From Octopus vulgaris (Eukaryota), in contig OX597822.1 in NCBI GenBank assembly GCA_951406725.2, positions 52,886,001-52,950,000 on the forward strand: a stretch of 64,000 nucleotides of DNA. Direction: 5' to 3'. The position numbers and the translations under genes are program-made. This document shows, in pieces, positions 5,440 through 61,644 of this stretch; the stretch's first letter is position 1, and every line of letters starts with the position of its first letter. The notes below the pieces were generated by a model. It made no database searches. It worked only from the letters and a program-made list of their open reading frames with translations, and was not told where the DNA came from.

Positions 5440-7150
5440 GAGAGTCAGTCTCTTTTAGTGCCTTATTATTTAACACACTCACCGGTTCGATTTCCATTAA
5501 CTACCTAGATAACCCCGATCGTAGTAGATTCTACCTCACCAGGTCACGGAGAGGAAGATCACCCGCCATTACCTCGACAGGGATGAAAAGCACCGCAGAG
5601 CGCTGGAGTGGATGGACCACACCCACCCAGGACCCCGAGAACAACTGTCAGGGGAAAAGAATGACTGTACATGCAATAGGGGCTAGCATAAAAACCACCT
5701 TGAAGAACCACCTAGAAAAGTTTAACAGGAAACTATACATACAGGCTCAAGGTGCAGCCATTGATGTCGGTGTGGCTGGAGACGTGGCCGGCTTCTTCAT
5801 GTCTGGTGAGACAGAAAACTTAAGCAATCCTTAGCGGAACAATCCACAACTGTTTTGCTTTACTGTAGGTATGTAGATAACATTATTATTCTAGTTAGGA
5901 CAAACTCTAGTAACTGTAATGTAGAAACCGAGAGGAGCATAAATGGAGATCATCCAGTACGTAGTATCAAGGTATCAAGGTAACAATCGATTACCCCACA
6001 ACACACCCTAACATTAGACTCGCTGTCCTTGATACTGAACTTTGGTTAGAGACTGTGAACACAGAGTGAAGTTCCTCCACTCCTATTACATGAGACCCAT
6101 AGCTTCTAAATATGTTGTTCACAAGGACTCAGCTTTGTTACATAAAAGGAAAATCAACTTATTGATAGCAGACTCAGGAACATAGTGGGAACAACGTGTT
6201 CCCACTATGCAAACCCTATGAAACAAAGAAACATGTACGGAACTTCATGCACTGCATGCAATTCTCTGGATATGATCAGAAAGATAGGGTTCGCATATAC
6301 AGGGAAGCTAGAAAGAAGTTAGATAGCATTATATGTAATGAAACCAATGGTACCTGCCCTAGATATAGAAGTAAATACTGGAATAGGATACAAAGAGTTT
6401 GGGACAAAGCAAACATGATGAACACGTTGTACAAGACCGACAAATATCAAGGAGCGGTGTTTGTAGCGGCCACAACCCATGGAGAATTAGCCCGAAGATT
6501 TAGGAAAGATCTGAAGGAGGCCTAACTCAACATTAAGATCGTTGAAAAGTCAGGGAGCTCCATCAGATAACAACTACGTAGGACGTACCCCTTTGAGAAT
6601 ACTACATGAACCCATGACAACTGCATGGTATGTAAGATTAATCCTGGCATTAACTGTAAAATTAGAAATGTAGTTTACAGCATAAGGTGCATAGAGGGGA
6701 CTTGTAAAGACAACAACATGATATAAATAGGTGAGACAACTAGAAGCATTGAAAGACTAAATGAACATTTGAGACAATATGACGACAAGAAAACAGTCCT
6801 CCATACTCTACCAACAGGCCAAAGACCAATACCGAGGCATACTGGGCCAACTTCACATCCGCATTTTATCCAAGCACCCGAAGGACCAAACACTCTGACA
6901 GACAGAGGAGTACGTCCTCATAAATGAAACATCCCTTGTACTTAATAGGAAATATACGTAGAAGGTAGACATATCTCAATACTCACAATATATATATACA
7001 CAGGTAGAGTTGTTAGAAGGCTGTTATGTAGACACTCACACACACACACACACACATACAAAGACGCACACATACATACAAACATACATACACATACAAA
7101 CACCAAGCATGAATATACAGAATACATACAAACAAATGTACACACAAGCA

Positions 7151-29010: not shown

Positions 29011-29611
29011 GCCCACGGACCGTTGCTAAAGTTTTGTGCAATGTTTGGGGGCACATGCATTATGAGATCATTGACAGTTGGTACCATCTCACCACAGGCT
29101 CTCTGCCCTGCCCTGCCCCCACTCCGACTTTGGATGATGATAACTTTCAGAAAAAATGGATATTTTTAAATGAAATTTTCTACGAATATGTGTTATATCA
29201 TGTAGATTCCGAATATACAAATTTTTTTGGGGAAAGTGTTTTGGAAGGGGATGGGGAGGATTTTCGGAAAATTCACCGGAGTCCACTTTAATTCGTCTTA
29301 ACGTTCAGGAAAATGGATATTTTTTTTAATGAAATTGTCTACTATTATACTTCTATGTAGATCCCAAGCATATAGGATTTTGTGGGAAAACAATTAAGGG
29401 TTATTTTTACGAACTGTTCCTCGCTGGAAGTGGGGGTCGGAACAAGTCGTCCACATTTGTTTCAGTTTTTCCGTTTTGTGCGTTTGTGCATCCGTATATA
29501 ACCCTTAACTCTAGTAAAATTTCGGGAAAAAATTTGAAAAGTTAACGGGTGTATAAAAAAAGCCTAAAAGTGACTCCTGCTTTTGCATTTCGCATGCAGA
29601 AAGTTCATCGA

Positions 29612-31954
29612 TCGATCGATTGGCCCGCATCAATTTGTACAACATCTTCCCGGTTCGGCCAGGCCCTTCTTGACGTGGCTGAAGATTGTTTTCTATCGCA
29701 ACATGTTGAATATCCGACAAGGCATCGGTCTGGGCAGCAGCCATCTATGCTAGATCTGGTATTCTCCCGCTATCCAAGATCAGTGTCAGACGTATCTGTG
29801 TGCGCCCCTCTTGCCAAGAGTGATCATGCGGTCCTGAAGTTCGTCATGCACACAACTTTTTCCACACCCACGATTACTTCGCTGCCACGTAGAGTCTTCT
29901 CTGCAATTAATCTTGAAATTCTAACCGAGGCTTCCGCGCTTCTGGACTGGCGTTCCCTGATGACGTTGTCCTCAGTTGACGAACTATGGTCATCCCTCAA
30001 AGCATATGTAATCTGTTTGACTGACCAGGCAGTTCCCGTTGGACTTCCCAAGAGGAAGAAACACAAGCCCTGGGTGACGAAGAAGGTTAAACGTCGACTC
30101 AGAGATATTGCTTGGGCTGAATTCAAAAATCTGGATTCGACTGCAGCTTTTGAGGTGTACAAAACTCAACGAGACCGAGCCGTGAAAATTGAAAAGAAAG
30201 AACACTTCAGTTATGAATACAAAATCGCGGCAAATGCCAGTAGCAATCCAAAAACCTTCTTTGCCCATGTCCAGCGGAATTCCCGCTTGAACAACCAGAT
30301 TGCAACGTTGGTAGACTCAACAGGCGTATCGATTGAGGACCCTTATCAACAGAGTCAATTATTTGCCGAGGCTTTTTCAACTATTTTCAAACAAGATGAT
30401 GGTCGTGAACCCCCTCCATTTGATAGATCGGTACCTCCAATGCTTCGATTGATCATCACGCGGGACCAAGTCAAACGTGTTATTCAAGGCCTCGATGTCA
30501 ACAAGGGTCACGGCCCTGACGGCATACACCCACGGGTTATCAAAGCGTTGGCTCCGGTCATCTGCGAGCCCTTAACACGACTATTCAATATGTCATTGGC
30601 GACGGGTGTTATACCTGCAGACTGGAGAACAGCGATAATCTGCCCAATTTTCAAGAAAGGGAGCCGCGAAGACCCGCTTAACTACCGACCGGTTTCCCTT
30701 ACATCAATAATCAGCAAGATGTTCGAAACCATCCTTAAGAAAAGTATGATGCTCCACCTCCTAAACACAGCCTCGATCACTGATTCCCAACACGGCTTCG
30801 TGCCGAAGAGATCATGCTTGACCAACTTACTAGTAATGGAAGAATTGGTGACGCGCATCCTCGATGATAGTGATGCTGTTGACATCGTTTTATTGGACTT
30901 TGCCAAAGCTTTTGACTCGGTAAACCACCGCCTACTACTTGTCAAGCTTCAAGCATATAGTTTCCATCCGGATATTGTACGATGGGTTGGTGCCTTCCTC
31001 TCAGATCGCTCCTTCCAAGTTCAAGTTAATGGTTCGCGGTCCGACGTCTCCAGTGCGAGCAGTGGCGTGCCTCAAGGTTCAGTGCTTGGGCCCTTGTTGT
31101 TCTTAGTCTTCATAAATGACTTGCCCGACGACCTCACGCAACACACCCTTCTATTTGCCGACGATATCAAACTGGTCGCTCCTCGCGGTAGTATAGAGGA
31201 TCTTCGTCGATGCCTCCACCAAATTTGGAAGTGGTCTAACGATTGGGACCTGTGTCTGAACGTGTCAAAGTGCTGTCATCTGCCTGTCGGCTCTACTCCT
31301 GCAACTCAACTTGATTTCGAGCCGGGTCGTCTGCTGCTGGAGAGGACCGATCAGGTAAAGGACCTGGGTATCTTGGTGGATTCCTCCTTTTCGCCTTCGG
31401 CCCAGTGTGTCCATGCTGCCAACAAAGCGCGCGGAATTCTGTTTTTGATTCGACGGTCATTCGGAATGCTCACAGCAGCCATATTCCTGCCACTCTATGT
31501 CACGCTGGTGAGACCCATATTGGAGTATGGGATTCAAGCCTCTTCTCCTTATCTCCTCAAAGACATACAGCACCTCGAAAGAGTCCAGAGGCTGGCTACC
31601 CGCATGGTTCATGGTCTCAAAAATTTGTCCTACGAAGAAAGGCTGAGGACGCTCGACCTTTGTTCTCTTGAAAAACGCCGCCGCCGTGGTGATCTCATTC
31701 TCGCCCACAACATCATAAGCGGGAAGTGTAACCTCTCGAAAGAGCTGTTCTTCACTCCTGCTCCGGAGCGTCGGCTGCGGGGTCATTCCGAAAAGCTCTA
31801 CCTGCGATGATTTCATCTCAATCGAAGGAGAGGAGCTTTCTCCGTCCGGGTTGCGGATCCGTGGAACAAGCTGCCAGACGAGATGGTGAAGATGCCGACG
31901 ACCGCTTTGTTCAAAGCCTCCCTGGACCTCAAGTGGCCTGAACTCTTTACATGA
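29612..31954 (+). pseudogene. CR1 ORF2 (partial endonuclease + reverse transcriptase), one premature TGA at 31808-31810
   Basis: ORF 29549..31810 is open. Reading through the stop gives 47 more codons (FHLNRRRGAFSVRVADPWNKLP...) to TGA at 31954. No native N-terminus. Confidence 0.9.
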
Positions 31955-37099: not shown

Positions 37100-37101
<2 letters not shown>

Positions 37102-37839
37102 GCCCTGATGCAGTACCAGGCAGTGGCTCTCATGGCTTCTGATCTTAACTGATTGGAAGTGTTATCATGTACATTGTTTTGTCTTGGTATAAAAGATGGG
37201 CTACAGCAAATATTCTGCTCAATACCACAGATTTGCTTGTCAGTTGTTTGGCCTTAACCAGTTGAGCATGTCCCTTAGTGGCTATGCCCTGATGCAGTAC
37301 CAGGCAGTGGCTCTCATGGCTTCTGATCTTAACTGATTGGAAGTGTTATCATGTACATTGTTTTGTCTTGGTATAAAAGATGGGCTACAGCAAATATTCT
37401 GCTCAATACCACAGATTTGCTTGTCAGTTGTTTGGCCTTAACCAGTTGAGCATGTCCCTTAGTGGCTGACGATATGTGCATTTCTGATCACGAGCAGAAG
37501 TAGTGAGGGAGCATCATGGCCATGTGTTGAGAGGGATTCTTTGGGGTTTGAATAATTCACCTCTGGAAACATAGGTGTTTCGTTCAACATCCTAAAGCAA
37601 CCCTTATTCAGGGACCTTTTGAGCAGGACGGACTACTCAACCTGAAGAAAATTCTAACTGGGCCCCACCTGCAAGGTCATGTGCTGTTTATCTTGATGTG
37701 AGATCACCATGTCGCGCACATATGGTTGTGATGCATGTGCCTGGTGTGCCTTTATCAGACGGGTAGTCATGATGGGTATATTGGGCTTCGTATATTTTAC
37801 CCCAGTGTCACTTTGATGGCATGAACTGCTCTCTCACTC
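37100..37839. mobile_element. ~555-bp microsatellite-embedded element, copy 3, with 184-bp terminal tandem duplication
   Basis: 37100-37283 is repeated from 37284. Flanked by (AAT)n at 37016-37099 and (AAT/GAT)n at 37840-38031. Confidence 0.9.
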
Positions 37840-39843: not shown

Positions 39844-40399
39844 TTCTTTTCTACTCTAGGCACAAAGCCTGACATTTTGGAGGAGAGGACCAGTCGATTA
39901 TATCGATCCCAGTACAACTGGTACTTAATTTATCGACCCGGAAAGGATGAAAGCAAAGTCGACCTCGACGGAATTTGAACGTAAAGCGTAAAGACAGACG
40001 AAATACCTATTTCTTTACTACCCACAAGGGGCTAAACACAGAGAGGACAAACAAGGACAGACAAACGGATTAAGTCGATTAGATCGACCCCAGTGCGTAG
40101 CTGGTACTTATTTAATCGACCCCGAAAGGATGAAAGGCAAAGTCGACCTCGGCGGAATTTGAACTCAGAACGTAGCGGCAGACGAAATACCTATTTCTTT
40201 ACTACCCACAAGGGGCTAAACACAGAGAGGACAAACAAGGACAGACAAACGGATTAAGTCGATTAGATCGACTCCCAGTGCGCAACTGGTACTTACTTTA
40301 TCGACCCCGAAAGGATGAAAGGCACAGTCGACCTCGGCGGAATTTGAACTCAGAACGCAACGACAGACGGAATACGGCTACGCATTTCGCCCGGCTAAC
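39844..40399 (-). mobile_element. Tandem trimer of SINE family A (~181-bp units)
   Basis: Repeated junction GACGAAATAC|CTATTTCTTTACTACCCACAAGGGG at ~40006 and ~40190. Confidence 0.9.
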
Positions 40400-40703
40400 G
40401 TTTCTGCCAGCTCACCGCCTTTCCTGCAATAACTTCTTCATGAAAAAAAGTCGTATCAGCTAGCATTTTTTAATGTGATAAGCAAATAGATAAATAGATA
40501 AATAAAGGAAAACGAAAAAAAATGATGAAATGGAAAGAGATTAATGTTAATGACACTTCTTGTCAAAAAGGGAAAATGGAGTGAGACGCAGACGTGAGTG
40601 TGTTAAGAAGCTTGGTACGTTGGGCATGTGTCTTCTACTATAGCCTGGGGTCGATCAAAGTCTTTTGAGTGGATTTGGTAGACGGAAACTGAAAGACGTC
40701 CGT

Positions 40704-40780
<77 letters not shown>

Positions 40781-41059
40781 ACAATTGAGGGTAAAATTAA
40801 TTAATTAATCAATTTCACCAAGTGTTCAGTATGCAAAAGGACCATTTAAGGCGAATTCAAAATATTACATTATATAATTAGGGCTTAGTAAAATAAATTA
40901 CTTTGCCACATACTGAACTAAGTAGAAATAGCAGCCCCAAAAAAATTTTTTTAGCCATTTCTACTACTTAAAGAAAATTTCTCTCAGATAATGTTTACTC
41001 CAGACAGCTCACGGAGGTTTGGAGGTAAATACAGAAAAATATCACAAGTACGTAGATTG

Positions 41060-41122
41060 TTTGAGTACGTCAACGTTTCAAGATTAGCCAAATAAAATCA
41101 GCATTTCTTTCGTCAGCTCAAA
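41060..41122 (-). ncRNA. Type I hammerhead ribozyme, canonical core
   Basis: Reverse complement of 42592-42654. Confidence 0.8.
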
Positions 41123-41776
41123 ATTTCTTAATTTGGATTTGGAAACACTAAAAAGAAGGAACTTTACCTATCAACGAACTTGTCGCTTCAGATGAACCAC
41201 TCCAACTAACAGTGTCAAATTCCGCCGAGGTCAACTTTGCCTTTCATCCTTTCGGGGTCGATAAATTAAGTACCAGTTACGCACTGGGGTCGATGTAATC
41301 GACTTAATACCTATGTCTGTCCTTGTTTGTCCCCTCTGTGTTTAGCCCCTTGTGGGTAATAAAGAAATAGAAATAGAAATATATTCGGACCTAGTATAAT
41401 ACGATTTAACATGCATGATTCAATATTCAAACCTTAGAGCATCCTAGTGTTCATCTGATAGCGGAATTTATAGCCATATCAGATTTCTCGTTATTTCCTC
41501 TTATTCTTTACACTCAAACTAATTATCTCCTGCTCAAAATTAAGACTATTTAAACCATTATGTACTTAAGTGGCAACACTTTGAATACAGCTGCGTGGAC
41601 TGATTTTTAAACTGGATGAAGTCTGGAAGCAGAAGAACAAACAGGATGTTGATAAAAACCACATTGCGAGATATCCATGCTGTAGAAACATCTGAGAGAT
41701 TTAAATTAGATATGCTATATAAATGACTGTAACAATAAAAACTGCGTAGATGTATAATTGTCCTTTTTGTGAATGC

Positions 41777-41810
<34 letters not shown>

Positions 41811-42090
41811 CAACAATTGAGGGTAAAATTAATTAATTAATCAATTTCACCAAGTGTTCAGTATGTAAAAGGACCATTTAAGGCGAATTCAAAATATTAC
41901 ATTATATAATTAGGGCTTAGTAAAATAAATTACTTTGCCACATACTGAACTTAGTAGAAATAGCAGCCAAAAAAAATTTTCTTAGCATTTCTACTACTTA
42001 AAGAAAATTTCTCTCAGATAATGTTTACTCCAGACAGCTCACGAAGGTTTGGGGGGTAAATACAGAAAAATATCACAAGTACATAGATCG

Positions 42091-42153
42091 TTTGAGTACG
42101 TCAACGTTTCAAGATTAGCCAAATAAAATCAGCATTTCTTTCGTCAGCTCAAA
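42091..42153 (-). ncRNA. Type I hammerhead ribozyme, canonical core
   Basis: Reverse complement of 42592-42654. Confidence 0.8.
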
Positions 42154-42591
42154 ATTTCTTAATTTGGATTTGGAAACACTAAAAAGAAGGAACTTTACCT
42201 ATCAGCGAACTACTCGCTCCAGATGAACCACTCCAACTAACAGTGTCAACAAATTCACAATGCGCAGGCGTAAATTTCTGCACTCCCCTTCCACCCACGT
42301 GGTCTAACTAGCAAACATTGTATTTTAACCGCGAGAACCGAGGCAGTATGACAGAGAGAAATGAATTATAATATCAACAATTGAGGGTAAAATTAATTAA
42401 TTAATCAATTTCACCAAGTGTTCAGTGAGCTGTCTGGAGTAAACATTATCTGAGAGAAATTTTCTTTAAGTAGTAGAATGCGCATTGTGAATTTGTTGAC
42501 ACTGTTAGTTGGAGTGGTTCATCTGAAGCGACAAGTTCGTTGATAGGTAAAGTTCCTTCTTTTTAGTGTTTCAAAATCCAAATTAAGAAAT

Positions 42592-42654
42592 TTTGAGCTG
42601 ACGAAAGAAATGCTGATTTTATTTGGCTAATCTTGAAACGTTGACGTACTCAAA
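42592..42654 (+). ncRNA. Type I hammerhead ribozyme, canonical core
   Basis: TTTGAG-CTGACGA-AAGA(aat)GCTGA-ttttat-TTGGC(taa)TCTT-GAAA-CG-ttga-CG-TA-CTCAAA; predicted cleavage after GUA at 42648. Confidence 0.82.
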
Positions 42655-42836
42655 CGATCTATGTACTTGTGATATTTTTCTGTATTTACCTCCAAACCTC
42701 CGTGAGCTGTCTGGAGTAAACATTATCTGAGAGAAATTTTCTTTAAGTAGTAGAAATGGCTAAAAAAATTTTTTTTGGTTGCTATTTCTACTTAGTTCAG
42801 TATGTGGCAAAGTAATTTATTTTACTAAGCCCTAAT

Positions 42837-42896
<60 letters not shown>

Positions 42897-42992
42897 CTAA
42901 TCCAAACAAGAAAACACAAAAAACACAACAACGCGAGGACGTGGAACAAATATAGTATTATTGGACGTTCAGGAAAGAAGGAAAGAAGGAGG

Positions 42993-43108: not shown

Positions 43109-43703
43109 ATGTTTGTGTGTGTGTGTGTGTGTGTGTGTCTCTCTCTCTCTCTCTGAATGTGTGTGTCTTTGTTCCCCACTACCGCTTGACAACCGGTATT
43201 GGTATGTTTACGTTCTTGTAACTTATTGGTTCAGCAACGAATAAGTAAGTATCAGGTTTAACAGAAAAAAGTACAGGAGTCGATCCATGCGACTAAAAAT
43301 TGAACAAGCTGGTGCGAGAACATGGCCGCAGTCTCACGACTGAAACGCGTAATAGGGATAAGATATATATTTTATGTATAGTAATATACTTGAATGATAA
43401 AAAGCGCGCATGTGCCTAGGAGGGAAAAAGAGGGAGAAAGAGAGAGAAATACTGACAAATATATGAACATTTTATATATAATCCTTTCTACTATAGCCAC
43501 AGAAGTACCTGCAATTTTGAGGGAGGGTTTAGTCGATTACATAGAGTCCATTACTCAACTGGTACATATTTCAGAGACCCCGAAAGGGTGATAAGCTAAA
43601 TCGGTCTCGATGGAATTTGAAAGCAGAACATAAACACAGACGGAATGTCGCTAAGAATTTTGTATACATACATACATACATACATACATACATACATACA
43701 TAC

Positions 43704-44010
43704 AATCAAAGCAGTTTGTCATGGACCTATAGCCGGATTACTACCTCTCACTTTGAAGGGTATGCGTTTGCAATCCAGGAACAGGAAATATCGACCAAGT
43801 ACCTGATGCACAAAAGGGATGACGATACAAGGTAAAGCCGTAAATTGTGACAACCGGTGCAAACTTTGTGAAGTTCACACTGAGGATATCACCCACGTCA
43901 TAACCAGTTGTCCGAAAATGTCATCACGGTATTATCTACCGATGAGACATGATGTTGTAGTTTGGTTCTTTCTCTATTGGCAAGAAATCTTGAAATAAAC
44001 TGAATAATGA
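43704..44010 (+). mobile_element. R4-clade non-LTR fragment (internally deleted) flanked by (TACA)n
   Basis: SHFEGYAFAIQEQEISTKYL..CKLC..EDITHVI..C..MRHDVV, then a jump to the 3' terminus shared with 45148-45195. Confidence 0.85.
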
Positions 44011-44112
44011 TATACATACATACATACATACATACGTACACACATACATACATACATACATACATACATACATACGTACGTACGTACACACACATATATG
44101 CGTGTGCATATT

Positions 44113-44163
<51 letters not shown>

Positions 44164-44272
44164 CCTGCTCGCTTAGCCAGCGGGATGGCGTCATTTGAAG
44201 GCTAAAACAATGCGAAGCGCATTGTGACCAGCGATGTGTAGCAACATCTGATAGCCTGGTCGGTCACGTGAT

Positions 44273-44311
<39 letters not shown>

Positions 44312-44356
44312 CATACATACATACCTACATATACACACACATGTATACATTCTCAC

Positions 44357-45195
44357 ATATCTGCATAATCACCCATAATAAAAAGTAATACTGGTGGAAT
44401 GTACCAAGGAAGACCTCAATAAAATGTAAGCAAAACAAACCTGATATAATGATTTGGGATAGAGAAGAGAAAGTGTGCACAGTTGTGGAAATTAGCTGCT
44501 CAACGTATGTTAACATAAAGCTGAAGATCAGTGAAAAAGAGAACACCTACGCTGAACTATTGAGAAATCTGCAGTTACTCTATCCAGATTACAAGTTCAG
44601 GTTTATACCTGTAATTATTGGGGCCATGGAATATGTAACACACTGCCTAAATACCAATCTTGAGAAATTAGAATTCTCAAAACCGGAAAGGAGAAAGTTA
44701 ATTCGAAGACTACAGATCCAGTCCATCACTGGAACTGTAAAAATCTGTAAAACTTTCCAGAAGTTTATCATTTAAATATATATGAGCATGTCTAGATATG
44801 CAACTATATGCATGAGAAGACATACATAAGACATACAAATCTGCACACATACATACATATACGCATACATACATACATACATTCATACATACATGCATAC
44901 ATACATACATACATGCATACATACATGCATACATACATACATACATACATACATACATACATACATACATACATACATACATACATACATACATACATAC
45001 ATACATACATACATACATACATACATACATACATACATACATACATACATAGACACATACATACATGCATACATACAAACAAACAAAAATACCCTGTTGT
45101 TGATTTTGAAATTCCAATGAAGGAGCCTTGAATCTAGGTTAGAAACCGGTTCTTTCTCTATTGGCAAGAAATCTTGAAATAACCTTAATAGTGAC
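44357..45195 (+). mobile_element. R4-clade non-LTR 3' end (RLE domain + 3' UTR containing (CATA)n)
   Basis: KPDIMIWDREEKVCTVVEISC..KISEKENTY..FIPVIIGA..IQSITGTVKICKTF*; ends GAAATAACCTTAATAGTGA-CATACATA. Confidence 0.88.
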
Positions 45196-48124: not shown

Positions 48125-49480
48125 CCAGCATTCGCCTTTCTGGGTTCGGGAAGCCTAATTTCTCAAGATTAGTATTTAGGCAGTTTGTTACATATCACAG
48201 GGCCCCAGTAATTACAGGTATAAACATTAACTTGTAATCTGGATAGAGTAACTGTAGATTTCTCAATAGTTCAGCGTAGATATTCTCTTTTTCACTGATC
48301 TTCAGCTTTATGTTAACATCCGCTGGGCAGCTAATTTCTACAACTGTGCACAGTTTCTCTTCTCTATCCCAAATCATCATATCAGGTCCGTTGTCCTTAC
48401 ATTTTATTGAGGTCTTCTTTGGTACATTCCTCCAGTATTCCTTTTTATTATGAGAGGTTATGGCTTTTACCATATTGTGGGTTCTTATTTCTTTTTCCTC
48501 TGGATTATCCTTCTGACGAATTTCATTATAGAGTGTCCTAGCTACAACGTCATGTCTCATCGGTAGATAATACCGTGATGACATTCTCGGACAGCTGCTT
48601 ATGATGTGGGTAATATTTTCAGCGTGAACTCCACAAAGTCTGCATCGGTTGTCACACTTTACGGCTTTACCTGCATCTCCATCCCTTTTGTGCATTAGGT
48701 ACTTGGTTGATATTTCCTGTTCCTGGATTGCAAACGCATACCCTTCAAAGTGGGAGGTAGTAATCCGGCTATAGGTCCATGATAAACTGCTTTGATGATC
48801 GATGTTACAATCATCACGGAGCTTTGTAGTAGCATATCCATGCATAGTCTTCTGCTCAAATAGGCTCATACTTTCACCAGATGATACGTTGCGGTAGAGT
48901 CGTGCGAATTCTTTGGGCATGTATTCTAAGCTATCAGACAAAGAGTGTTGCTCAAGGAGCTACCTTCCAAGTCTTATGATGTTATAAGCCTCATGTATAC
49001 AAACTTGGTCAAGGGATGCACTTCAACACGTGATGGTGCCGAAGGGATATGATGCGACATTCAAAGCATTTTGGATCGATGTTAAGCCTCTTCTGCCTTG
49101 TTTTCGTTTTAGGTAGAGGTGATCTGTTTATATGGAAATTATGTGTGGTTATTAGTATCTTTAGGGTTTTTATATCAATAGCTCCAATCGCATGAAGCGT
49201 CCAATCAAGCAGCCCAAATGTTGCTATGAGTACTGGCACTGCAAGTACATTGTGGACCACTGTTTTATTGAATGCAGAGAATTCTGAGGTCCAAATTTTC
49301 TTTATTTGGCTGTAATATTCTTTAGTGACACGTGTTTTGTTACAGGTGCCACAGTAAAATATATTTTCATTCACCCCTAGATAATTGTAACATTCCTCGT
49401 CAGATACAGGGGAAACAGTCAAATCATTAATAGTGATGTTACTAGTCTGGTTTATTGTTTTCTCCCTTTTCATAGCCATA
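48125..49480 (-). mobile_element. R4-clade non-LTR fragment (same family as 43704-45195)
   Basis: ORFs 49009..49479 (YNYLGV..IWTSEFSAFNK..AVPVLIATFG) and 48195..48941 (CRLCG..HIISSC..RHD..PD..VEISCP). Confidence 0.9.
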
Positions 49481-57699: not shown

Positions 57700-58245
57700 G
57701 TTTGGAGCTGGTTTGGCAACTGCACACAGAATTATTCATGAAGATCTGAATTTTTAATGATTTAAAGTTTGTTCCCAGGGTACTCAGTGACGAACAGAAG
57801 GAAAAACGCGATGGTAACAGCAAATCCTAAAAAAGTAATTAAGAAACTGGTCGCCTGTGGTGAAAGCTGAATCTACTGTTATGATTCAGAGACAAAAAGA
57901 CAGTGCTCAATGGAAGCATCCTCGAACTCCAGATCCAAGAAGGCCTAGCAGAGCATGTTCACCGGGAAACTTACGATGATCCCCACTTTTCGACATCATC
58001 TATATCCACTGGTTTCTCTGTGATGAGACGGTCAACGATAACTATCCTGGGAAGATTTAGAGGGAGTTCAGGGAAGTGTTTTGTTGCAAAGGCCAGATCT
58101 CTTCCACTTGTGCAAGTGGCAATGCGCCAATCCACAATTCCATCCTGGTAAAACCAACTACATGACAGAAATGGCATCAAAACTGTCCCTCACCCGCCCT
58201 ACAAGCCAGATATTGCTCCTCGCTAATTTTGGTCGTTCCCCAAAC
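57700..58245 (+). mobile_element. mariner transposase remnant
   Basis: KFVPRVLSDEQKEKR, GES*IYCYDSETKRQ, HPPYKPDIAP. Confidence 0.75.
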
Positions 58246-58269
58246 CGAAGTCCAATCCCAGTGACAGTT

Positions 58270-59560
58270 ACTTTGAAGATGCAACAGATATTCTGAGTAA
58301 CATGGTATTGTGTTTTAGGCCCAGTGATGATAGTAACGCTGTTTGTGTAAGAGCAGGTACTACATCGTCGGAGAGTGCATTTAAAAGTTGAGTTGGGTTG
58401 GGTGTTGTGAAGCTTCTTACTAGAGGATAGGTTCTTATCTTTTTTAAAGGCGAGAGGTGGTGCGGGAAAGACTGGAGTGGTTGTCGGATCACACAGTAAA
58501 ATACGGAGGGTGTGAATGAATTTATCTTTCAATGGGATGATGAACAGGTGGAATATAGTCCGTAGACGTGCGTAAAGAAAGTTAGAGAACGGTAGTGAGG
58601 TAGAAGGCCTGGATTCGGCGGAGAGCCGGGACCACAACTGATCGATGGCACCTCCTATTCAGGAAAAATAGTGGCATTGTTTGACATTGGGATTCAAAAT
58701 GTGAACTAGCACTACAGAGTTGGCGAAGGTCAAGGAATTTAGAGAAAGGTTTGGCAGATTTAGTGTGTTTGGAGTGAGAAGAAGAGTAGTGGAGTTAAAA
58801 GTGGTAGACAGCTGATTTGTAGTGGACAGAGGTAGATAGGAAGATATTGTTATGTTGATGGAGATATCAAGAAAACTAACAGAATTATCGAATACGGTGG
58901 AGATAAATTTCAATGCAGGGTTGAAATTAACGAAGGGAATAAAATTGCTGAGCTTTGATCGAGTAAGGATGATAGCGTCTACTTAGTCATTAACGATCAT
59001 CGAGCTCTGGGATAGGTCCGGTGAATTGAGCAAAGATTTTCTCTTCAATATGGCCTACAAAGAGGGTGGCATAATCGGGACTCATCCTAGTTCCCATAGT
59101 AACACGGCTGAATTGTTTATAAAATTCCCTAAAGAAAGAAAAGCAATGAAGGTATAGGACTGGCTACGCTAGGCGGAGAAGTGTAGTAGCACTAAATTCG
59201 AGTAGGGAGTGACAGTCTAAGGATTGATAGAGGGCTACTAAGCCGTTGTTATGGAGGATTACGGTGTGCAATGATTTGATATCTATGGTGAAACGGTGCT
59301 TGGGCTCTCTAGAGGGAAAAGAGAACGCGTTGAAGAGATTTAGGAAATCGTTGACGTGTTAGTATGGGAGGGTAGGGCAGCGACAATAGGAGATTATAGT
59401 TTGTCCAAGTACGATAATAGAAGTGTCGTGGTGCAGTTTCAGGATGAGACAACTGTTCGACTAAGAATGCGTGGTTTGTGAATTTTGGGAACAAAGCAGA
59501 TAGTTGAGGTTCGGAGGGTGGTGATGATGAGGTTAGTGACAGTGAAGGGAGCCGGAAGAG
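58270..59560 (-). mobile_element. Penelope-like element RT fragment, degenerate
   Basis: VPKIHKP..RTVVS, FTIDIKSLHT, FYKQ..VTMGTRMSP.YATLFVG.IE, ALKF..SVSFLDISI, CSTC. Confidence 0.85.
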
Positions 59561-59674
59561 ATAAAAACAAATGGTGGAGACTTGTTTCTAGTTGTGGTTT
59601 GTAAGATTGTTTGGTTTTGAAATGAGCATTATTCAGTTGGCGTGGTGATTCTTGTATGTACATGCCAGGCCACC

Positions 59675-61396: not shown

Positions 61397-61508
61397 AGAA
61401 TTCCTTTTATTACATTCTACACATGTTTCAAAGGCCACAAATTTCCAAATTCTGATTAAATAAGGGTACCATATTGTGGCTTTCTCTTCAGGAAAAAACA
61501 GGAATTCC
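61397..61508 (-). ncRNA. Type I hammerhead ribozyme (mirror arm)
   Basis: Reverse complement of 61533-61644. Confidence 0.72.
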
Positions 61509-61532
61509 GTTGTTTTGTTTTGTTCTGTCAAC

Positions 61533-61644
61533 GGAATTCCTGTTTTTTCCTGAAGAGAAAGCCACAATATGGTACCCTTATTTAATCAGAATTTGGAAAT
61601 TTGTGGCCTTTGAAACATGTGTAGAATGTAATAAAAGGAATTCT
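61533..61644 (+). ncRNA. Type I hammerhead ribozyme with extended helices I and II
   Basis: GAATTCCT..TTC-CTGAAGA-GAAAGCCACAA[loop]TTGTGGCCTTT-GAAA-C-atgt-G-TA-GAA..AGGAATTC; predicted cleavage after 61623. Confidence 0.75.

Follow-up and report, generated by a model that had tools for sequence, protein, structure and literature searches.

Two kinds of hammerhead-bearing repeats in animals lie close to the locus described here, the non-LTR retrozymes and the Penelope-like elements (PLEs), and a link between the two has already been proposed. Mobilisation of animal retrozymes by PLEs has been proposed (PMC7229834; bioRxiv 10.64898/2026.07.22.740005), Li et al. 2026 tie these retrozymes to PLE pLTRs (bioRxiv 10.64898/2026.07.22.740005), and a circular or multimeric template has been hypothesised for such elements (PMC4209133, PMC7229834). 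The same 2026 preprint states that its own coverage is mainly of vertebrates and that life-cycle evidence is scarce (bioRxiv 10.64898/2026.07.22.740005). PLE insertions are described as biased towards microsatellites; ahead of the full copy stands a partial one in tandem with it, and frequently a further copy, inverted and 5'-truncated, adjoins the 5' end (PMC8557442). On AT-rich DNA, a purified PLE protein cuts both strands, extends them and begins reverse transcription at two internal sites, and insertion by PLE in vitro did not need ribozyme cleavage (PMC11167929). From Octopus, a TA-targeting and hammerhead-bearing PLE is on record as Hydra-1_Obim (PMC8557442).

Here we analysed a stretch of 64,000 nucleotides from Octopus vulgaris, in the following called the window. 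We assign a probability of roughly 0.7 to the reading that the locus in question contains three copies of an abundant 564-nt hammerhead repeat, one of them whole and two truncated, which were likely placed there in two insertions by PLE enzymes. The element itself is best read as a non-autonomous PLE-type element that resembles animal non-LTR retrozymes. A search of the freely accessible literature found neither a cephalopod retrozyme nor this family, which repeat databases such as Repbase and Dfam or supplements of papers may already list.

Anatomy of the locus

The unit, its head-to-tail joint, the head-to-head inversion and the TA flanks are directly observed at the locus (Table 1), as is the abundance of the unit in other sequencing runs. 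An earlier note on this DNA had reported near-identical non-coding units beside (TA)n tracts, and this is borne out by three copies of a unit whose longest ATG ORF comprises 23 aa. On the other hand, the 564-nt monomer, its head-to-tail joint and the inverted piece at 42425-42478 had been overlooked.

Table 1. Features of the locus; positions are counted from the first nucleotide of the window.
Feature	Position	Strand	Remarks
(TA)n tract, 3' end of copy 1	40706..40777		putative insertion target
Copy 1, 5'-truncated	40778..41218	(-)	3' 440 nt of the 564-nt monomer; 96.6% to monomer, 442 columns
Hammerhead motif 1, type I	41060..41122	(-)	predicted cleavage after 41066
Truncated abundant SINE-like repeat, outside the element	41215..41370		joins copy 1 at TCAA microhomology 41215-41218
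Host spacer, outside the element	41371..41776		406 nt, no other match in the window
(TA)n tract, 3' end of copy 2	41777..41809		putative left part of one target microsatellite
Copy 2, full 564-nt non-coding monomer	41810..42373	(-)	34.6% GC; longest ATG ORF 23 aa; rod-and-branch fold predicted
Hammerhead motif 2, type I	42091..42153	(-)	predicted cleavage after 42097, 287 nt from unit 3' end
Head-to-tail repeat of the unit's own 3' end	42374..42426	(-)	53 nt (56 with ambiguous ATA), 100% identity
Inverted internal piece of the unit	42425..42478	(+)	54-57 nt; 2-3 nt microhomologies at joints
Copy 3, inverted, 5'-truncated	42479..42843	(+)	lacks ~107 nt at the start and ~88 nt at the end of the unit; stops at ATTATATAAT
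Hammerhead motif 3, type I	42592..42654	(+)	predicted cleavage after 42648
(TA)n tract, 3' end of copy 3	42844..42895		putative right part of target microsatellite

Read on the hammerhead strand, copy 2 amounts to 1.1 units arranged head to tail (42373 to 41810 plus the repeat), the repeat constituting a partial tandem of pseudo-LTR-like appearance, and the hammerhead sits in the middle of the monomer. Copy 2 is joined head to head with the inverted copy 3 such that TA tracts lie outside both 3' ends. Copies 1 and 2 share one 3' end position in the unit, each at its own (TA)n; altogether, all three large copies end at (TA)n and two of the three are 5'-truncated. Complementarity of the plus copy extends over 358 nt with copy 1 (97.8%) and over 375 nt with copy 2 (96.3%), in line with the pairing over ~360 bp that had been claimed. 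Pairwise comparison reveals 11, 6 and 11 differing sites over about 353 nt, from which it follows that the copies derive from distinct templates. Collapse of the array in a better assembly, put forward earlier as a refuting outcome, is therefore unlikely, all the more so as the family is abundant in independent runs.

The repeat joined to copy 1 is one that we, like the earlier note, take to be a SINE. The switch of copy 1 into this repeat at TCAA is confirmed by the 4-nt overlap at 41215-41218 and by the loss of the upstream part of the SINE, which is retained in four other copies in the window. Copies 1 and 2 are separated by 558 nt, made up of the truncated SINE and 406 nt that are unmatched elsewhere in the window.

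Further repeats were noted in the vicinity. The SINE-like repeat found at copy 1 is also present at 39892-40375 in 2.6 head-to-tail copies with a period of 184. Two exact tandem copies (100% identical) of a 184-nt repeat occupy 37100-37467 and represent either a recent duplication or one introduced by the assembly. At ~61410-61630, at least 80 nt around 61491 and 61550 read alike on both strands, that is, they form a near-perfect inverted repeat.

The hammerhead motif and the fold of the unit

The 63-nt motif is letter-identical in all three copies, one on the plus and two on the minus strand, and the earlier claim of three identical hammerheads in direct and inverted copies is thereby upheld. 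A helix I of 6 bp (UUUGAG/CUCAAA) is followed by the CUGACGA box, a helix II of 4 bp (AAGA/UCUU) that is lengthened by a 3x3 internal loop and a further 5 bp, the GAAA box, a helix III of 3 bp (A-U, C-G, G-C) with a UUGA cap, and finally GUA. With CUGANGA, GAAA, an NUH triplet, helices I-III and an open helix I the motif is a type I hammerhead, and fold prediction places an internal loop beyond helix I. A hammerhead descriptor finds exactly three sites in the 64-kb window; 300 versions of the window shuffled by blocks of 500 nt gave no site. The cuts predicted on the minus strand after 42097 and 41066 place the two minus sites 1031 nt apart, exactly the distance previously given for the two minus-strand ribozymes.

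The motif had also been described as a canonical full-core hammerhead. This holds for the core, the 6-bp helix I and the 3-bp helix III but not for helix II, which is extended, so that loop 2 is not short, and which is closed by A-U instead of the G10.1-C11.1 pair that is highly conserved in hammerheads (PMC4209133). In keeping with the second part of this verdict, Rfam yielded no hammerhead family at gathering score in the whole window and none up to E=10 on 40700-42900. The exact 42-nt motif pattern had no match in metagenome contigs and a degenerate version had none in viral contigs. A core-only pattern matched 94 metagenome loci; none of these combined a helix I of at least 5 bp with a helix II of at least 4 bp, and none was similar to the 564-nt unit.

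Separate from the ribozyme core, the stretch 42179-42200 (-), 26-46 nt upstream of the hammerhead, contains AG/GTAAAG, which resembles a splice donor, and a pyrimidine tract with AG at its end. Introns can occur in PLE pLTRs. Among the contig joints listed, none matched these splice-like signals.

Folded as a circle, the hammerhead strand of the monomer reaches -144.8 kcal/mol (z -6.5), a stability attained by none of 40 dinucleotide shuffles, and the opposite strand reaches -109.9 kcal/mol (z -3.7). The monomer RNA is accordingly highly self-paired in prediction (z -6.5), as is characteristic of animal non-LTR retrozymes. The linear forms are as good as the circle (-149.9 and -150.9 kcal/mol), so the fold supports a conserved structured RNA and not circularity as such. 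A long series of helices is predicted between 42084-42007, behind the ribozyme, and 42260-42362 in the 5' part of the unit; strong local stems are predicted for the 3' 190 nt. Counted over 40 of the 59 variant rows, which are unphased and stem from related copies, four predicted pairs vary on both sides and three of these are compensatory (41940/41866, 41994/41954, 42021/42318), compared with 0.48 on average over 20000 rounds of permutation (P 0.009) and with 0 or 1 in ten slid controls. Only one of the three lies in the long-range rod. Furthermore, 17 of 28 variants at paired sites keep the pairing, against an expectation of 46% (P 0.024), and the other 11 break the pair.

The segment ACGUUGACGU of helix III can pair with a second copy of itself over 10 bp. 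Two isolated cores are predicted to co-fold as an active double hammerhead (-30.2 versus 2 x -9.6 kcal/mol), and in a single core the CUGACG box pairs with helix III with a probability of about 0.7, which is an inactive state, versus 0.13 for formation of helix III. These values agree with the dimer model put forward for hammerheads with a palindromic helix III (PMC4209133). Strict dependence on a dimer, as suggested by the isolated cores, was however dropped after folding in the full-length context: the active fold of the whole monomer is modelled as 0.3 kcal/mol less stable than the minimum, and the double hammerhead of a modelled tandem dimer as 1.0 kcal/mol less stable. With active monomer, inactive monomer and double hammerhead all within 1 kcal/mol, dimer dependence is not established. 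In a related experimental system, eight of nine predicted Xenopus retrozyme dimers failed to cleave in vitro (bioRxiv 10.64898/2026.07.22.740005). When the truncated copies are modelled in their native context, their motif is misfolded by about 3 kcal/mol, which makes copy 2 rather than copy 3 the better local candidate for a ribozyme. In transcripts that enter from outside, the 375-bp hairpin of copies 2 and 3 would bury both motifs.

The unit family in sequencing runs and candidate helper elements

The 564-nt unit is present in 20 of the 24 runs listed, with 11 studies and 4 organism labels represented and no run listed as RNA among those with the unit, and the contigs of four of the 24 runs were placed on the monomer. 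Matching contigs numbered 2367 and 1044 in two DNA-type runs, and 153 and 105 in two runs (X7 and X14) that are guessed to be RNA but are possibly DNA, and whose coverage is not taken as evidence of expression. Summed contig depth, which is not equivalent to copy number, amounts to about 0.55-1.48 million over the 3' end (41810-41961) versus 0.012-0.039 million over the 5' end (42285-42373) in run X1, and to 0.46-0.88 million versus 0.013-0.021 million over the same intervals in run X5. This gradient hints at copies that are truncated on the 5' side and share a fixed 3' end.

A head-to-tail joint connects 42372 to 41810 at a depth of 61 in X1 and 42371 to 41810 at a depth of 5.7 in X5. The two joints carry different letters in between, and the exact joint of the window is not among the joints listed. 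The occurrence of a head-to-tail joint in two runs with differing letters points to a family-wide feature. As to arrays of whole units, the window holds 1.1 units and the joint is seen in these two runs, the contigs being too short to span arrays. In X7 one contig stops at 41894 beside TA-rich sequence and two others stop at 41901, which weakly hints that the family may have an additional 3' end corresponding to the one in copy 3. Copy 3 and these few contigs end about 88 nt short of the 3' end of the unit, a distance to be compared with the optional 30-40 nt tail of PLEs.

Within the hammerhead, variants account for 2 of the 40 listed rows (59 in all). One of them, A17 to U at the cleavage site, keeps a cleavable triplet according to the NUH rule. 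The other, U11.1 to A, makes up 13-28% of the depth in three runs and breaks the closing pair of helix II, unless the base opposite changes as well. Contigs with loose ends or bridged gaps at 41974, 42030, 42184 and 42273 indicate diverged subfamilies in which segments of 20-80 nt are replaced and the order of the parts is kept. A GT..AG skip from 42055 to 42133 in a single X7 contig was considered as splicing and rejected, as it lies on the strand opposite to the ribozyme; it shares its depth with a second skip, which a DNA run shows nearby, making a diverged subfamily the likelier source.

The unit is devoid of an RT or GIY-YIG ORF and is therefore not an autonomous PLE. The window contains a decayed, frameshifted PLE-type RT at about 58150-59650 (-) that shares no sequence similarity with the hammerhead unit. 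Its translation includes what we take to be RT-like motifs, and the Cys-rich linker that follows presumably resembles that of the Neptune clade. PF26215 is carried by 21 of its 30 atlas look-alikes, on 15-73% of the members in the three that were shown. A homolog search with the decayed fragment returned nothing at E<=0.001 among 310 longer candidates, and Pfam assigned no family to two of its frames. An open frame at 6169-6525 (+) presumably resembles the thumb region of a PLE RT, and Pfam gave only a sub-threshold, unrelated match for it.

Retroelements of other kinds are present as well. A 754-aa open frame at 29546-31810 (+) matches RVT_1 (E 5e-32) and, weakly, an endonuclease, and is a fairly intact piece of a LINE ORF2. 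The segments at 43700-44775 (+) and 48195-48959 (-), which we take to be non-LTR retrotransposon fragments with a zinc knuckle and a restriction-like endonuclease motif, are interrupted by microsatellites and show a weak zf-RVT match (E 9e-4).

No autonomous PLE that shares sequence with the unit was found in the window or in the accessible part of the PMC8557442 supplement. When 11 short motifs of the unit were compared with that same part of the supplement, ten were absent, a negative result weakened by the line breaks in the text, and the remaining one, a 10-mer, had a single match at an unrelated-looking place (PMC8557442).

Origin of the copies and relation to known systems

Part for part, the complex of copies 2 and 3 agrees with the insertion pattern published for PLEs (PMC8557442): a partial tandem (42374-42426) is combined with an adjoining inverted 5'-truncated copy (42425-42843), and 5' truncation is combined with a microsatellite as target. 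A PLE protein that cuts and extends both strands and has two RT start sites, as documented in vitro (PMC11167929), would explain the presence of two outward 3' ends in one TA tract. From PLE-like anatomy together with PLE enzymology we infer two PLE-driven insertions of a non-autonomous unit.

The following course of events can be envisaged. Tandem copies would be transcribed on the hammerhead strand, and 564-nt monomers would be released from the multimer by its ribozymes, acting either singly or as a double hammerhead formed via the self-complementary helix III segment. The monomers might then be ligated into circles. Nicking of a (TA)n tract by a PLE protein would follow, with reverse transcription starting at the fixed position 41810 or about 88 nt inside and ending early in the majority of copies. 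Copy 2 would have been copied over 1.1 units, a length that needs a circular or multimeric template, and the locus fits both. Copies 2 and 3 could have arisen by priming on both strands of one break, with their 5' ends joined via microhomology. Copy 1 would be the product of a separate event in which the 5' end annealed within the SINE and target DNA was deleted.

The same anatomy could be produced if the copies were the 5'-truncated pseudo-LTR or 3' UTR ends of a longer autonomous PLE and the 564-nt monomer merely reflected a truncation point combined with a template jump. We regard this as rather unlikely. Truncated, tandem and inverted ends are the usual product of PLEs (PMC8557442), the steep drop in depth also suits long elements, and 101 and 70 contigs overrun the ends of the unit, the letters beyond 42373 not being displayed. 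Yet the joint occurs at the same place, with variant letters, in two runs of different organism labels, the 5'-most part of the unit pairs with the part behind the ribozyme and does so with one compensatory pair, the unit holds no ORF of more than 23 aa, and the order of its parts is unchanged in diverged contigs.

Quite improbable is the spread of a satellite-like repeat at the DNA level, or an assembly artefact, in which the hammerhead would be a relic with no present role. Tandem and inverted structures do trouble assemblies (PMC8557442), the locus is known from an assembly, and the ribozyme departs from the consensus. These points are countered by the differences between the copies, by a depth that rises towards a fixed 3' end lying at TA tracts, and by the 63-nt motif, which is identical in three copies and contains only 2 of the 40 listed variant rows.

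Hardly credible, finally, is the earlier note's model of a ~1-kb retrozyme-like unit that is bounded by the two minus-strand hammerheads, freed by read-through transcription and circularised: although such a unit is physically possible, given identical same-strand motifs 1031 nt apart with no AAUAAA/AUUAAA between them, and although the active folds of both motifs lie within 3 kcal/mol of the minimum, the spacer is composed of a truncated SINE, a TA tract and host DNA, and its fold is less stable than that of its shuffled versions (z +2.0, 30 shuffles). A separate TA target belongs to each copy, and the repeat length of the family, naturally also the distance from one cleavage site to the next, is 564 nt. 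The hammerhead of copy 1, the second one in this model, does not form in the modelled read-through, though the margin is only 2.4-3.0 kcal/mol.

The insertion of a non-autonomous 564-nt unit by PLE enzymes may be extended into a more ambitious and rather doubtful reading, namely that of a young, mobile, viroid-like 564-nt circular RNA of cephalopods with a selected rod and a palindromic double-hammerhead switch, which PLEs copy around the circle. If this were true, the 1.1-unit copy together with twin inverted priming would be direct genomic evidence of PLEs mobilising animal retrozymes, and the family would be a ready substrate for comparing circular with linear templates.

The kind of system to which the locus belongs is already known, and the addition is the family itself, which is abundant, appears to be young and is likely one of octopuses; the repeat landscape of the DNA is like that described in PMC8967140. 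A single locus here unites a retrozyme-like structured hammerhead RNA with the full insertion signature of a PLE. The family thus lends itself as a test case: is a circle the template, does the ribozyme need a dimer, and which PLE supplies the enzymes?

As in animal non-LTR retrozymes, the unit is non-coding, has a GC content below 50% (34.6%), carries a type I hammerhead and lacks an LTR; the label retrozyme-like, already given in the earlier note, is therefore apt for an ORF-less, low-GC and highly self-paired unit of 564 nt. Animal retrozymes share with it a non-coding low-GC unit, one type I hammerhead and a head-to-tail joint, as well as a highly self-paired predicted RNA and a proposed dependence on PLEs (PMC7229834; bioRxiv 10.64898/2026.07.22.740005). 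With 564 nt the unit exceeds the ~170-400 nt of the animal retrozymes of 2020 (PMC7229834) but lies inside the range of 51-972 bp of the 2026 preprint (bioRxiv 10.64898/2026.07.22.740005). It differs from them in that 1.1 units with truncated and inverted copies are present here and are known from DNA, and in its long helix II closed by A-U.

With PLEs the locus has in common the partial tandem, the adjoining inverted 5'-truncated copy and the (TA)n target, and with the hammerheads of PLE pseudo-LTRs the palindromic helix III, the long helix II and possibly two 3' ends (PMC4209133, PMC8557442, PMC11167929). Unlike PLEs as these sources portray them, the unit has no RT/GIY-YIG ORF, and its two possible 3' ends lie about 88 nt apart, as compared with 30-40 nt for the PLE tail; its motif also has neither G10.1-C11.1 nor the additional base that follows A9 in PLE hammerheads. 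Hydra-1_Obim from Octopus bimaculoides shares the (TA)n preference and a hammerhead near the 3' end and represents a possible type of helper (PMC8557442). However, its hammerhead has another sequence and lies much nearer to the 3' end, the element is autonomous with 2507 bp, and no shared motif was found in the accessible part of the source (PMC8557442).

Plant LTR retrozymes possess two direct hammerheads ~1 kb apart, much like the earlier ~1-kb model (PMC7229834; bioRxiv 10.64898/2026.07.22.740005). In contrast to them, the hammerhead here is of type I and not of type III, no LTR pair surrounds an element body, the spacer is host DNA, and the 4-bp target duplication is not seen. By analogy, the unit would function like an animal non-LTR retrozyme and insert like a PLE, and it is neither an autonomous PLE nor a plant-type LTR retrozyme.
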